Positions 1 to 63,356 of a stretch of DNA of 64,000 bases are shown piece after piece. The notes under the pieces were generated by a model. It did not search any database. It saw only the letters and a list, made by a program, of their open reading frames with translations, and was not told where the DNA came from. Origin of the DNA: a virus; the UHGV virus genome UHGV-1550212. One strand, given 5' to 3'. The position numbers and the translations under genes are program-made. Position 1 is the stretch's first letter, and each line of letters starts with the position of its first letter.

Positions 1-98
1 TTTCTTGTTTGTACAGCCATAGTATGAAATTGTTTGAAGTTTGTCTGTTATTTGTATTGCAGACAAGCTCGAACAATTTCATCATTCAAGTATGTCTG

Positions 99-506
99 CT
101 ATTTGTAGAAAGCGCGATTAATTAACACCCAACGAGTTGTGTTGCCTGCAATAAGAATTGCATATGACATTGCGCCAGTTGCATTTGCTGATACATCTGA
201 GTAGCCTGCTGCATAGTACAATGGCCCATTATTAAATGCAAATGTTGTTGTCGCATTGCAAACTGTTGCATTGCCTACTCGATTAATAACACATGATTCG
301 CCATATGTTAAGTTTGACAATGCGCATGTTATTGCTGACGATGTCGTTATATTATGCACTGTGTTTGCGACTGCATTAAATGACGCAGATTCAAGCGTCG
401 CATTCGCCATCAACGCACTATCAATGAGGTCGCCAAATTGTGCCGAGGTGGGTTTATCTCCGGTTTCAAAATACGTTTTGAGTACCGAACGTGTTTGAAC
501 TGCCAT
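99..506 (-). CDS. small tail-fibre-like protein (135 aa)
   Basis: ATG ORF. The N-terminal LKTYFETGDKPTSAQFGDLIDS motif resembles conserved phage tail-fibre N-termini (recognised from memory, not searched). It lies at the end of the fibre block. Confidence 0.6.
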   Translation of the reverse strand: MAVQTRSVLKTYFETGDKPTSAQFGDLIDSALMANATLESASFNAVANTVHNITTSSAITCALSNLTYGESCVINRVGNATVCNATTTFAFNNGPLYYAAGYSDVSANATGAMSYAILIAGNTTRWVLINRAFYK

Positions 507-3646: not shown

Positions 3647-6600
3647 TTATCGAACAAGGAATGACGTACCAACAACCATATTCGGGATTGCCAAGCCATT
3701 GCCAGACTGGCTTACTGCAACTGTGCCACTTGTGTAACCTGACAATGCTGCAGTAATTGTTGCCGACCTGCTGTTATCTGAACCCCAGTTATTTGCAGCG
3801 GACAATGTCGAACCTCTGATTGTGAATGCGCCATTGTTCGATGAGTACGTTGGAGTAACCGCAGCATCTGATGTTGTAGACTGACCTGTCGTGTACTTTG
3901 TGACAGTTCGACCTGTCGTAGACAATGTTGCAGTGCCACCAGCAGCCCCAAAGCTTGTAACAGTTGAGCTGACAATCAGAGTCTTCGTAGTCGAAGTCAC
4001 ACTGTTGGCTTCCTGTGTAGCAGTGATTGCTTTTGAGCCAGTTTGACCATTCAACGCAACCGTCATATTGACTGTAGCGGTTCTTGCAGAACCAGCAGTT
4101 GTGCCACGATTTGCAGCAGTCAATGAACCGGTTGTACTACTGTTAAGCGTAAAGCCAGTAGTTGTAGCCATACTGTATGAAATTGTACCGCCAGATGTAA
4201 TAGTAGTTTTTGAACCACTTGTGTACGTTGCTGTCTGCGAGTATGCTGGCGTGCCTGTTGGAGTCTTTGTTGCACCTGCTGCAGCAAATGTTGCATATGA
4301 TGTTGCTGTAGTAACTGTGACTGCACTGTATGATACACTGTTAGTTGCTTGATAGACATCAAGTGCTTTTGTAGCAGTCTTAGACCCTTCACCAGTAGCA
4401 GTTGCAGTCAAAGTGCCAATCTTTGTACGAGCTTTAACTGTAGTGCCAAGCGATGATGCGCTGACTTTTGTGCTATACGCAATGCTAACTGAGCCTGCCC
4501 TTGTGCTGCCAGACGTATATGTAATTGTCTGTGATGCACTGATGCCAGACATTGATGCGACTTCACCACCGCCAGCAGGAATATCTGATACAGAACCACC
4601 AGAGATTGTTACTGCGCCATATGTCGTAATTGCATTTGCAGCTTGGTACACATCGACTGCTTTTGTTCCAGATTTGCCATTGACTGTTACAGTAACAGTA
4701 GATGTTGTAATCTTTGTGCGGGCTTTAGCAGTAGTGCCAAGTGAACTACCAGACACTGCGCCAGTAGACGTTGTTACACCAGTACCAGACCATGATTTGC
4801 TGCCGCCAGACGTAACTGTCTGTGTTGAGCCACTTGACCACGTAACTGATTGACTGAATGACACCGTAGGCGTAACTGAGCCGCCTTTTGCAGGAATATC
4901 ACCATAAGTCATCGAAACTGTTGGCATGCCATATGTAGCAGCATTAGCATTTTGAGATGCAGTAGCAGTCTTTGTTCCACTGATAGTCTTTGTGCCTGCT
5001 GCGTTGTATGATGCAGTTGGCGTCCATGTAGCCTTTACAGTCTTTGTGACTGTTGGCGATGTTGTTGCACCACTTGCAGTAGTGCCTTTTGATGATGCGG
5101 TTATAGCACCAGTAGATGCATTGAGTGCAGTGAACAATCCTGATGCGCCTGGCCAGCTATATGATGTTGTAGTTGACAATGAACCATACGTAGATGCTGG
5201 CGCAGTAGTTGAAGTACTGCCACTACTAAAGTGGTATGTTACTGTGTTTGCACCATTTGACGGTGTAGATGTTCCGCCACCTGCAGCAATTGCAGGATAT
5301 GACATCGAACCAACTGCAATATTGAGTGCAGTCACATAGTTGCCTGCCTGATAAATCGTTGCAGACTTGCTGGCAGATTTGCCATTCATTGTGACTTTAA
5401 CAGTCAGTGTACCTGCAGTAGTCTGGTTAGATATTGTAGTGCCCTTTGATTGCACAGTGACTGTCGATGTGTACTCAATTGTTCCGCCGCTTGTCAGTGT
5501 TTCTGTCGTCTTTTCACCAGTAGCATATGTCGTAGTTTTGACTTGCGAATAAGTTACTGTACCAGATTTTACAGAACCGCCGCTTGCTGCAATGATAGTT
5601 GCAGACGGTGTCAAGTTAACTGTGATATCGCTATATGTAACTGTGCCAGCAGATTGAGCTGCTTGATAAACATCTGCAGCTTTTGATGCAGACTTACCGT
5701 TGAGTGCTACTGTGACAGTTAATGTGCCAATCTTTGTTCGTGGCTTAACTGATGTGCCAAGTGATGATGCAGATATACCTGCTGCTGGGCTATATGAAAT
5801 TGTGCCACCAGTAGTAATGTTCTGAGTTGATGTTGATGTGTATGTAGCAGTCTGCGAATATGACACATTGCCACTCTTAATTGTACCACCAGTTGCAGGA
5901 ATATCTGCTACAGTGAAGCTTGAAATTGTAACTGCGCCATATGACACAGTGTTTGCAGCTTGCTTGACTGTGCAAGAACCAGTTTTTGTAACACCGCCCT
6001 CAGTGTATGAGCCAGAAATTGTAATGCTGCGTTCTGCGCCTACGACTGTTGTGCGATTTGCTGCAGTTACTGTAGTAGTCGACAATGTAAAGCCAGTTGC
6101 TGAACCGCTAAGTGTTGCAGATACTGCAGCAGATGACGTTGAGCCTGATGCATATGTGTATGACGCTGTTGAAGTGATTGTAGTTGAACCGCCACCAGCT
6201 GCCAATGTTGCAGCGCCAGGTGTCAATGTCAAGCCATTCAGCGTCTTTGAGTTTGCAGTTTGTGTTGCAGTAGCAGTTTTTGTAGCAGACTTGCCATTGA
6301 TTGCTACCGTAACTGTGACAGCATTTGAAGCATCAGTAGAGCCTACATATGATGTGCCCATTGACGTTACAGTCAATGCGCCACTTGTCGTATTCAATGT
6401 CCAGCGTGACTTAGCAGTCATTGCATAAGACAATGTAGCACCACTTGTCAATGTGCCACCTGAGCCAGCTACGCCATTCCAAGTCCAGACTTGTGAATAT
6501 GAAACAGTTGGGTTTGATGTACCACCAGCAGGAGCAATGTTTGAATATGAGAACGTTCCAATGACAGGCGTTTCATAGACTTTAGCGCCTGCAGCTTGGT

Positions 6601-59880: not shown

Positions 59881-59946
59881 ATGTAGAGATTTTTGTAGTT
59901 TGTATCAATTGCATTCTATATCAATTGTATCTTGTATCAAATACAT

Positions 59947-59994
59947 TATATTGATATATGATAATTGTACTACAAAAATCCCAAATTTGCACAC
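59947..59994 (-). promoter_or_regulatory. early/middle-type promoter-like motif
   Basis: Minus sense GTGTGCAAATTTGGGATTTTTGTAGTACAATTATCATATATCAATATA. Confidence 0.45.
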
Positions 59995-60069: not shown

Positions 60070-60167
60070 TTAAAATGCCCCATTGTACAATATTTTGTGC
60101 TATTTTGCACAAAGCAGCATGTTAAAATGTAACCATTTATAACGCTGCAAAATGTCTGCATAAAATA

Positions 60168-60716: not shown

Positions 60717-60737
60717 TTTGTATATGTACATAAAAGA
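60717..60737 (-). promoter_or_regulatory. late-type promoter-like motif (CTTTTATGTACATATACAAAC)
   Basis: It lies between terminator 60736-60765 and ATG 60701. Confidence 0.4.
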
Positions 60738-61160
60738 GCAAGTTCTCAATGTGGAGAACTTGCTCAGCTGACCTGTTGCCAGGTGAAAGCGTGGTGCAGC
60801 ACCTTGTGCTGCAATGGCTATGCTGCCATCGCCATAACGGGCTGAGCATTGCCCAGCATCATTACACGACCAGCTGCATTAAGCGTACGCTTTGCTTTGT
60901 TGAAAAATTTGCCAGTTATCTGGTATCTGCACATCTATTCAAGCGACCTACTATGCAATCAAATGCCTGTCGAGCCCAATGTTTGAGCAGTTGTTTGTCA
61001 GATGCTCAGCTGACTGCAGTCTTTCTGAGTGTATCAAGTTCAGCGATTCTGCATCTTTGCTAAATGGCAATAGTTCAGGTGGACTCGCCGAGAATCGAAC
61101 TCGGGTCTTACATAGCGCATCCTTGACTTGGTCCTGTAAACAGGGTTGTCAACATGCATT
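60732..61160 (-). ncRNA. ssrA: candidate circularly permuted (two-piece) tmRNA-like gene: acceptor piece about 61160-61078, spacer 61077-60978, coding piece 60977 to about 60736
   Basis: Hand fold. The T-arm CCGAG-UUCGAUU-CUCGG is followed by the 3' acceptor strand CGAGUCC-A-CC (61104-61078). The 5' acceptor strand GGGCUCG (60977-60971) gives 7 bp with G3.U70 and A73. The P2a-like pairing is UUGCAUAG (60958-60951) with CUAUGUAA (61115-61108). An AUG-less frame ends ...GNAQPVMAMAA-UAG (stop at 60818-60820) inside hairpin 60811-60832. The terminator is at 60736-60765. Confidence 0.5.
60736..60765 (-). terminator. rho-independent terminator that ends the tRNA/tmRNA-like transcription unit
   Basis: Perfect 12-bp stem GAGCAAGTTCTC/GAGAACTTGCTC with a 6-nt loop, followed by UUUUAU. 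Confidence 0.8.
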
Positions 61161-61231
61161 GCAATACGACAGGACTCGAACCTGCGACCTCGGATTGGAC
61201 GTCCGCGCTCTTACCGCTGAGCTACGTATTC
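61161..61231 (-). tRNA. atypical tRNA, Gly(UCC)-like
   Basis: Hand-folded 71-nt cloverleaf with D-arm GCUC/GAGC and T-arm GCAGG-UUCGAGU-CCUGU. The anticodon loop is CGUCCAA, which puts G at position 33. There is a G1.G72 mismatch and no clear nucleotide 26. Confidence 0.5.
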
Positions 61232-61548: not shown

Positions 61549-61731
61549 AAGAGCAGTTCAAGTCTGCAGCATTGAACTGCGGAAACAATGCCTGTACGGG
61601 CAGCAAATTGTGCAGATACAGCGACATTGCAAAATCACACCGAACCAAGTTTGTGGCTCTTCTGTCTCATAAAAACAAGTAATCATTACACTTGGCACCA
61701 ATGATTCTGATGTAAAAATCGGTGTGTTATG

Positions 61732-61816
61732 CGGAGAGTAAGGGATTCGAACCCCTGGTACGTTGCCGTACAGTGGTTTTCAAGACCACCGCCATCGACC
61801 GCTCGGCCAACTCTCC
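61732..61816 (-). tRNA. tRNA-Ser(UGA)
   Basis: Class II tRNA. Acceptor GGAGAGU/ACUCUCC, anticodon loop CUUGAAA, 16-nt variable arm, T-loop UUCGAAU. Confidence 0.9.
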
Positions 61817-62010
61817 ATAAAACATTGCATAAGCATTCTTATCTCTTGATGAGACCAAGTAGCTAATTTGGCAAGTTTGTTATATCTATCGTGACTGTTG
61901 CAGTTTGTTTGTCACTCAATACACAAAACTTTCGAACATTCATTGACAGCACTGCAATATCGCTTTTTAAGCTTAGCCATCAATGTATTTATGCAATGTA
62001 TAACAATTCG

Positions 62011-62092: not shown

Positions 62093-62182
62093 ATTTACAA
62101 ATGCAATCTATTTCACAACTGTTTGCATTTGCATTGTTTAACACTAAAAATATGATTCATCTAATCAAAAACCAGAGAATTG

Positions 62183-62256
62183 TAGGGTAGACAGGACTCA
62201 AACCTGCGACCACGTGGTCCCAAACCACGCATTCTAATCAACTGAACTACTACCCT
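62183..62256 (-). tRNA. tRNA-Pro(UGG)
   Basis: Acceptor AGGGUAG/CUACCCU and anticodon arm CGUGG-UUUGGGA-CCACG. The T-loop UUUGAGU is slightly atypical. Confidence 0.85.
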
Positions 62257-62262
62257 AAGTAG

Positions 62263-62334
62263 TTGAACCGTCTGGACTCGAACCAGAAATGGCTGAACCA
62301 AAATCAGCTGTGTTACCGATTACACCACGATTCA
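62263..62334 (-). tRNA. tRNA-Gln(UUG)
   Basis: U1-A72 acceptor UGAAUCG/CGGUUCA, anticodon arm GCUGA-UUUUGGU-UCAGC, T-loop UUCGAGU. Confidence 0.9.
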
Positions 62335-62858: not shown

Positions 62859-63356
62859 TCATTCGATGTTACCAGATAATATCCGAATGGCATCCAATGC
62901 ATTTTCTCGTATTAAGCCAAACTTACCTATAACTTGAACAAAATGTTTGTCATTTTCAAATGTTGAGTCGTCAAGAATGACATATTGTTTGATGTTATGT
63001 TTATCAACAAGCGCAGGCACTGCAGCAAATCTGTCATAAAAGCCCTCAGCATAAATTGATGGCAACAAATAGCCCGGCATATTGCGCTTAAGCCACATTG
63101 TCTTGCAGTCATCAAGAATAGCCCAACTACTTATCAAGCAAATTGCGCCAACATCTGACATCTGACAAATGTATCTCAACCAGCCAACACAACGTTCGTC
63201 AAATAATTGACCAAACTCATCTCTCGACTGCACATCCATGTTTGCACGATGTTTTGACATGTGCAACATATTGAGATTATCTTGGCTATTCAAAACGCCA
63301 TCAATATCCAAGAAAATTACTTTGTCAGGCCAAATCACTTTGCTTGCTGCGTTCAT
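62859..63356 (-). CDS. HAD-superfamily phosphatase-like protein (165 aa)
   Basis: N-terminal VIFLDIDGVLNS, the DxDG nucleophile motif of HAD phosphatases. Confidence 0.7.
   Translation of the reverse strand: MNAASKVIWPDKVIFLDIDGVLNSQDNLNMLHMSKHRANMDVQSRDEFGQLFDERCVGWLRYICQMSDVGAICLISSWAILDDCKTMWLKRNMPGYLLPSIYAEGFYDRFAAVPALVDKHNIKQYVILDDSTFENDKHFVQVIGKFGLIRENALDAIRILSGNIE

Follow-up and report, generated by a model that had tools for sequence, protein, structure and literature searches.

Circularly permuted genes for transfer-messenger RNA (tmRNA), which yield two-piece tmRNAs, are known from the Alphaproteobacteria, some Betaproteobacteria, and Cyanobacteria (PMC11915505). Phages carry tmRNA genes as well: one survey reports them in 402 of 18,146 phage genomes and, by ARAGORN, counts 53 of 133 unique phage tmRNA forms as two-piece, 50 of these 53 coming from marine or aquatic phages (PMC9004378). 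The alpha-type two-piece tmRNA is known from Caulobacter (Keiler et al. 2000, cited in PMC9004378) and from marine phages that carry it (phage Melnitz, pelagiphages, and CbK-like phages), and huge phages carry tmRNAs and SmpB (PMC7162821). Here, we analyzed a locus at positions 60727 to 61169, minus strand, of a 64,000-nucleotide (nt) stretch of the virus genome UHGV-1550212 (the window, meaning this whole stretch), which a preliminary description had proposed to be a gene of this type. From sequence comparison, we assign a probability of about 0.8 to the locus being a functional phage ssrA gene for a circularly permuted two-piece tmRNA. Since phage-encoded permuted examples are documented, the kind is not new, and the locus is very probably a further phage two-piece tmRNA and not a novel kind of system. 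The earlier opinion that a phage-borne permuted tmRNA would be unusual has to be dropped, the class being documented in many phages (PMC9004378).

The family gathered for comparison comprises ten loci including the window and contains three versions of the tRNA-like domain. Five loci (the window, L007, L008, L015, and L032) carry the version labeled type A and four (L001, L004, L005, and L009) type B, and the distant L006, whose neighboring protein is 47% identical, has the third. DNA-pattern and protein-based scans of IMG/VR gave L001 (175 kb) as the sole related contig, all other hits being chance matches in coding sequence. Six metagenomic contigs (L004 to L009) were reached through homologs of a 161-amino-acid (aa) protein encoded just downstream of the locus, L015 was added by a DNA-pattern scan of metagenomes, and L032 by a search with the tag peptide. 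An nhmmer profile found no further family member among the fetched loci and no second copy in the window. Among GenBank phages there was no DNA match to the locus, and a 33-nt T-arm query retrieved only chance matches.

Compared with L001, the window is 96 to 100% identical in its flanks, in the intervening sequence (IVS), and throughout the tag region, but only 36 to 74% identical in the two blocks forming the tRNA-like domain. Across the ten loci, these two diverged blocks are perfectly linked over the conserved spacer (five type A, four type B, one L006-type, and no chimeras), which is the outcome predicted for interacting strands. Judged at this level, the double swap of tRNA-like halves between near-identical phages serves as nature's own compensatory-mutation experiment and bears out the predicted two-piece fold.

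The individual helices were compared in a pair table of nine sequences, and in all nine the acceptor stem (7/7), the T stem (5/5), P2c (5/5), and P2b (3/3) are made of standard pairs. The perfect pairing of GGGCUCG with CGAGUCC noticed in the preliminary description was recovered, and G3.U70 with discriminator A73 (the alanine identity set) is invariant in all family members. Acceptor pairs 4, 5, and 6 are C-G, U-A, and C-G in type A but G-C, G-C, and U-A in type B, both sides having changed. In the T stem, pair 52-62 is A-U, C-G, or G-C and pair 53-61 is G-C or C-G, depending on the version. In helix P2, each of the three P2b pairs and three of the five P2c pairs vary without losing pairing, mostly through double-sided changes; taken together, P2b and P2c are paired in 72 of 72 cells, against 10 to 29 of 72 when the partner strand is slid by 1 to 3 nt. 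Helix P2a (CUAUGUAA/UUGCAUAG), given earlier as 8 bp, is present and extends to 9 bp in type A. Co-folding the two pieces of the window, a check proposed beforehand, returned P2 as 9+3+5 bp. When the window and L001 were each folded to minimum energy without constraints, the acceptor stem with its long-range pairing was recovered along with the T arm. All four pairs of a hairpin in the 5' leader differ between versions (CCUG/CAGG, UUGC/GCAA, and UCAU/AUGA), and the matching position of the Rfam alpha_tmRNA model is also occupied by a hairpin. The bases after A73 are CCU, CAU, CCA, or CAA among the family; the window has ACCU, and ACCA is encoded only in L004, L005, and L009, so that in most members completion of the CCA must be post-transcriptional.

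The coding piece holds a frame of 31 codons, for which we infer GGC as the exact resume codon. The bases before it (AAUAACU) include U and A at positions -5 and -4, respectively, as does the E. coli resume context, AAUAGUC before GCA. Between the window and L006, 14 tag codons are identical, 10 differ synonymously, and 8 non-synonymously, and the changes fall 7, 4, and 15 times on codon positions 1, 2, and 3 (chi-square p = 0.024). The two tags also differ by one in-frame 3-nt insertion and by the stop codon (UAG to UAA), with the C-terminal ...PVMAMAA kept. Throughout the family the tag ends in MAA, and in ...VMAMAA except for the ...VMSMAA of two loci (tag residue 28 being S instead of A, which gives ...PVMSMAA in L007 and L015). 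Other variants are minor: synonymous AAU to AAC in L001, synonymous CGU to CGC in L008, and M to T in L005. Both type B and L006 have an in-frame TAG four codons 5' of GGC and no start codon between. As read from these substitutions, the comparison shows a start-less tag frame under selection at the peptide level.

Type A has an in-frame ATG seven codons upstream of GGC, which opens a 38-aa open reading frame (ORF; 60934-60818) whose product is predicted by a gene caller in public data, and in-frame AUGs occur at tag codons 18 and 19. The coding part might therefore be an ordinary small protein gene, read from this ATG or from an internal AUG, with the tRNA-like element as a separate entity. 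We hold this to be highly improbable: a 2-nt difference in length shifts the ATG out of frame in type B and L006, the TAG precedes GGC there, and synonymous changes and the in-frame indel already occur 5' of codons 18 and 19. The statement that the locus has no credible ORF thus needs qualifying, as this ORF and an antisense ORF of 104 aa (60749-61063, plus strand) do exist; neither, however, is conserved in the relatives. The antisense ORF was rejected as a candidate, being split in L001, having no Pfam match, and having its first codon position as the most variable one. The +1 frame from GCA was likewise rejected, with 16 residues in the window versus 10 in L006 and unrelated ends. The hairpin GCGAUGGC/GCCAUUGC, described as the helix 5 that holds the stop codon, is absent from the consensus fold, and L006 cannot form it; the alignment of relatives upholds the acceptor pairing and the tag frame but not this helix.

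The conserved frame also bears on the idea of a tRNA-like RNA that host factors bind or charge without trans-translation, for instance as a decoy for SmpB or alanyl-tRNA synthetase or as a blocker of host tmRNA, as reported for the tmRNA-like RNA of mycobacteriophage DS6A, which has no coding sequence. The tRNA-like domain is the best-supported part of the locus, no pseudoknot 1 was found in the folds, the scores lie under the tmRNA family thresholds, and phages provide a precedent in an inhibitory form consisting of the tRNA domain only (cited in PMC11915505). Such an RNA needs no conserved frame, yet the locus has the third-position excess, the in-frame indel, and the AMAA end before the stop, and canonical spacing separates the frame from a resume context that contains UA. 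We regard this alternative as improbable.

As for the detectors, ARAGORN called a permuted tmRNA at 60727-61169 on the minus strand, as the preliminary description had anticipated, with the verdict "Permuted," the 3' tRNA domain at gene positions 55 to 92, and the 5' domain at 193 to 219. Its domains and 31-codon tag agree with those described before, and the features then listed (T arm, acceptor strands, D analogue, P2, frame, and terminator) are all present. In 150 dinucleotide-shuffled versions of the window, which add up to 9.6 Mb, ARAGORN called no tmRNA, so the features of the locus are not a chance assembly, and it independently gave the label tmRNA* to L006, L007, L008, and L015. With permissive settings, the Rfam model of permuted tmRNA, RF04321, matched 60818-61138 over its full length (30.8 bits, E = 2.7e-4 on a 901-nt search), using identical acceptor, T-arm, and P2 pairings, and it matched every relative at about 25 to 35 bits. 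ARAGORN and the RF04321 alignment agree on the gene order, in which the (C)CA-ending piece lies upstream, followed by the IVS and then by the piece that starts with G1. A tRNA identity was considered and rejected, since neither ARAGORN nor RF00005 called a tRNA between 60730 and 61160; the acceptor strands stand in reversed order about 100 nt apart, unlike those of a tRNA cloverleaf. By themselves the detectors leave the tmRNA identity open, and it is the relatives that give the deciding evidence.

How far a detector can err is seen in Cellulophaga phage phi4:1, where ARAGORN places a clearly false call of the same class inside the tRNA array (L031 39919-40580, corresponding to KC821632 89919-90580). 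This call spans tRNA-Tyr, tRNA-Ser, and tRNA-Asn, has a tag ending ...SNPTSRA, and looks like a tRNA-array artifact. The present locus also lies in a tRNA array and under the Rfam threshold, and leftovers of decayed tRNA genes could likewise have been stitched together with a chance frame. Its pieces, however, overlap no tRNA gene except for 9 nt of flank, and a local alternative pairing, GGAUGCG with CGAGUCC, is limited to type A. Compensatory pairing in three divergent versions, the conserved frame, and the result of the shuffles speak against an artifact too. The comparative data have largely refuted this explanation already, and we give it next to no probability.

Besides the false call in phi4:1, several points weigh against the tmRNA reading. 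Although RF04321 aligned the expected pairings, the window (30.8 bits) and the relatives (24.9 to 35.1 bits) remain under its gathering threshold of 47 bits, and Rfam 15 at gathering thresholds gave no match in the window. The alpha, beta, and standard tmRNA models are weak partial matches at best: RF01849 (alpha_tmRNA, threshold 50 bits) had no match in the window at E <= 10, and on L004 it reached 14.3 bits over the tRNA domain only. ARAGORN made no call on the type-B versions. Type B has a 6-nt T loop (UUCGAU, shared with L006 and also with L013, an alpha-type locus treated below; type A has UUCGAUU), and its P2a shifts register around a bulged A, with two U-U mismatches. The tag is long (31 to 32 residues across the family), and the folds contain no pseudoknot between P2 and the tag, the tools used being ones that do not predict pseudoknots; the distance from P2c to GGC is only about 25 nt. 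There are just three independent versions of the tRNA-like domain, which makes the covariation statistics thin. Finally, a search with an E. coli SmpB query found no SmpB gene in the 64-kb window or in L001, and for this reason SmpB is assumed to come from the host.

If the locus is a two-piece tmRNA gene, as we favor, it would be transcribed as the last unit of an array of seven tRNAs (in the order Gln-Pro-Leu-Ser-Glu-Thr-Gly, with the tmRNA last), up to the terminator. Host tRNA-processing enzymes would cut the precursor, with RNase P acting before G1 at 60977 (the -1 base being U); the 3' end would be trimmed after A73, the CCA completed, and the IVS of about 100 nt lost. The resulting acceptor piece (about 61146-61078) and coding piece (about 60977-60730) would be joined by the 7-bp acceptor stem and some 17 bp of P2. 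By virtue of G3.U70 and A73, the host alanyl-tRNA synthetase would charge the tmRNA with alanine, and host SmpB and EF-Tu would bring it to stalled ribosomes. Translation would then resume at GGC (60913) and add the 31-residue tag, whose ...AMAA terminus is like that of ssrA degradation tags. For the phage, the likely gain would be that ribosomes are recycled and truncated proteins disposed of or re-routed during infection, when host mRNA is being degraded. The features of the locus are collected in Table 1.

Table 1. Features of the candidate two-piece tmRNA gene (window coordinates)
Feature	Position	Strand	Remarks
5' leader hairpin CCUG-UUUA-CAGG	61133..61144	minus	4 bp and tetraloop; same place in all three versions
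P2 5' strands: P2c 61126-61122, P2b 61121-61119, P2a 61116-61108, then GAC linker	61105..61129	minus	25 nt in every version
T arm CCGAG-UUCGAUU-CUCGG	61104-61088	minus	Stem 5/5 paired in all; used by Rfam and ARAGORN alignments
Acceptor 3' strand CGAGUCC 61087-61081, A73 61080, CC 61079-61078	61078..61087	minus	7/7 pairing in all sequences
Intervening sequence (IVS), about 100 nt, two conserved hairpins	60978..61077	minus	Consensus fold of 19 pairs, 5 double-changed
Acceptor 5' strand GGGCUCG	60977-60971	minus	Pairs 7/7 with CGAGUCC; G1 is the predicted RNase P site
D-loop analogue ACAGGCAUUUGA	60970-60959	minus	Conserved ACAGGYAUUUGA in all members; aligns to RF04321 D-analogue columns
P2 3' strands: P2a 60958-60950, P2b 60947-60945, P2c 60943-60939	60939..60958	minus	Partners of 61108-61126
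Tag frame, 31 codons, reads GKFFNKAKRTLNAAGRVMMLGNAQPVMAMAA and stop	60818..60913	minus	GGC 60913-60911 to UAG 60820-60818; ARAGORN
Hairpin after tag UGCAGCAC-AAG-GUGCUGCA	60795..60813	minus	In consensus fold
14-mer CCACGCUUUCACCU 60794-60781 overlapping hairpin ACCUG-GCAA-CAGGU 60784-60771	60771..60794	minus	14-mer identical in all, including L006
Intrinsic terminator closing the tRNA/tmRNA unit	60730..60765	minus	12-bp stem 60765-60736 and U run; 3 pairs double-changed in L006

The locus is richer in GC than its surroundings (0.44 to 0.49 versus 0.27 to 0.40 downstream), as had been remarked before, and the strong terminator described earlier is indeed present. Both this terminator and the hairpins after the tag are conserved, with compensatory changes; the post-tag hairpin GCAGCAC/GUGCUGC, for example, is GCGGCAC/GUGCCGC in L006 (A-U to G-C). 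Directly before G1, AUU is invariant in the family. The ACGCUUU of the 14-mer (60781-60794) is complementary to AAAGCGU in tag codons 7 to 9 (60888-60894), a helix predicted in the consensus fold with both sides invariant. The 12-nt direct repeat GUCAGCUGAGCA that had been pointed out is real (plus-strand 60761-60772 and 61003-61014, the second copy having been placed one base off), with about 0.007 such pairs expected by chance, and it supplies the 5' strand of one IVS hairpin as well as that of the terminator. It is kept in close relatives and absent in L006, and thus gives no support to the proposed origin of the permutation by tandem duplication.

A Bacteroidota host is plausible. The nearest homologs of the topoisomerase belong to Chryseobacterium and Prevotella phages (33 to 39% identity), and in the one with the nearest homolog, Chryseobacterium phage MA9V-1 (38.6%), 98 kb were checked and contained neither a tRNA nor a tmRNA. 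Enrichment of the Bacteroidota promoter motif TAnnTTTG is only weak (73 matches versus 58 +/- 8 expected), so the motif does not identify the host. A pattern scan of genome contigs, screened with ARAGORN and nhmmer, gave only chance matches (including contigs binned in Bacteroidales and Oscillospiraceae metagenome-assembled genomes) and neither a prophage nor a host link. The source is probably non-marine, with ENA sample names resembling those of human-gut cohorts.

Near-identical phages carry swapped, mutually compatible tRNA-like modules of the tmRNA. Within the same array, individual tRNA gene bodies are replaced between near-identical phages while the flanks stay 96 to 100% identical, a pattern that matches the swap of the tmRNA domain. 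The swapped bodies are those of tRNA-Pro (62156-62278) and tRNA-Ser (61722-61845) in the window, with 5448-5521 and 5708-5960 in L001 and 205-278 in L007. The three versions of tRNA-Pro(UGG) differ greatly but share the anticodon loop, and L001 has no callable tRNA-Ser, the body at that site being diverged. Downstream of the tmRNA, two further segments of the window (60083-60157 and 59922-59957) show near-zero identity or indels relative to L001 within surroundings that are 92 to 100% identical.

Two neighboring genes deserve mention. A 279-aa gene of L005 (1305-2144), between tRNA-Gly and the tmRNA, encodes an endonuclease-like DUF559 protein (25.9 bits, cutoff 20.6), and its junction sequence also occurs in L004 and L009, as an insertion in some type-B phages; the protein may be a homing-type endonuclease able to drive local gene conversion. 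Just upstream of the tRNA array, the gene at 62859-63356 (minus strand) codes for a protein with the HAD domain known from "Swiss Army Knife" RNA-repair proteins (PF18143, E = 2.3e-14), a hint that the phage organizes RNA repair and tRNA supply together.

The swapped tmRNA domain and the tRNA-Pro and tRNA-Ser bodies point to a rapid, cassette-like turnover in phage arrays, a turnover relevant to the contest of phages with host defenses that target tRNAs. A bolder scenario, which we find doubtful, would see here a separate permuted-tmRNA lineage of large gut phages whose hosts have a one-piece tmRNA. Genomes identical in all other respects would trade the module as a matched cassette, as they would the neighboring tRNA bodies, either to fit the charging and processing enzymes of the host or to escape host nucleases directed at tRNA-like RNAs, and the unusually long basic tag of 31 residues would do more than mark proteins for degradation.

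For the inventory of phage tmRNAs, the consequence is twofold. The curated models miss the present tmRNA (30.8 versus 47 bits) and ARAGORN misses half of its relatives; given these missed detections, such genes are probably under-counted in non-marine phages. Lists built on ARAGORN only, in turn, contain false calls. Among the entries of Table S1 examined, phi4:1 is the only Bacteroidetes phage marked "Permuted" (PMC9004378). Like the present locus, it has its ARAGORN call inside a phage tRNA array; its tag is without a degron-like end, whereas the present locus has covariation and frame conservation in its favor. The tmRNA-like RNA of mycobacteriophage DS6A (PMC11915505) is also a phage-borne tRNA-like domain, but it lacks a tag frame, in contrast to the conserved frame found here. 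One-piece phage tmRNAs (those of the mycobacteriophage Bxz1 group, Prevotella phage Lak-A2, and others in Table S1 of PMC9004378) are phage ssrA genes too, often beside large tRNA arrays in genomes of great size, and differ in having the standard colinear layout.

By chance, through a pattern match, we also found an alpha-type permuted tmRNA, L013 (Ga0182067_1277137, 40-320, minus strand), which passes the thresholds of both RF04321 (77.4 bits) and alpha_tmRNA (58.7 bits) and whose tag, translated from the aligned sequence, reads ANDNFAPSGFALAA. Its tmRNA had no match among GenBank phages. The T arm and acceptor strand of L013 are two positions off GGACCCGGCUUCGAUGCCGGCACCUCCAC of type B and L006, a likeness confined to that region.

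With the alpha-type two-piece tmRNA in general, the present locus shares the gene order, the 5' hairpin before the P2 strands, the 7-bp acceptor stem with G3.U70 and A73, the D-loop analogue, and Ala-Ala at the end of the tag. It differs in scoring under the RF04321 threshold and in obtaining almost nothing from RF01849. Its tag of 31 to 32 residues has no ANDNFA-type start, and no pseudoknot 1 was recognized with the non-pseudoknot tools used. Also unlike the alpha type, its IVS is structured and conserved, and its source metagenomes carry sample names that suggest the human gut instead of the sea.

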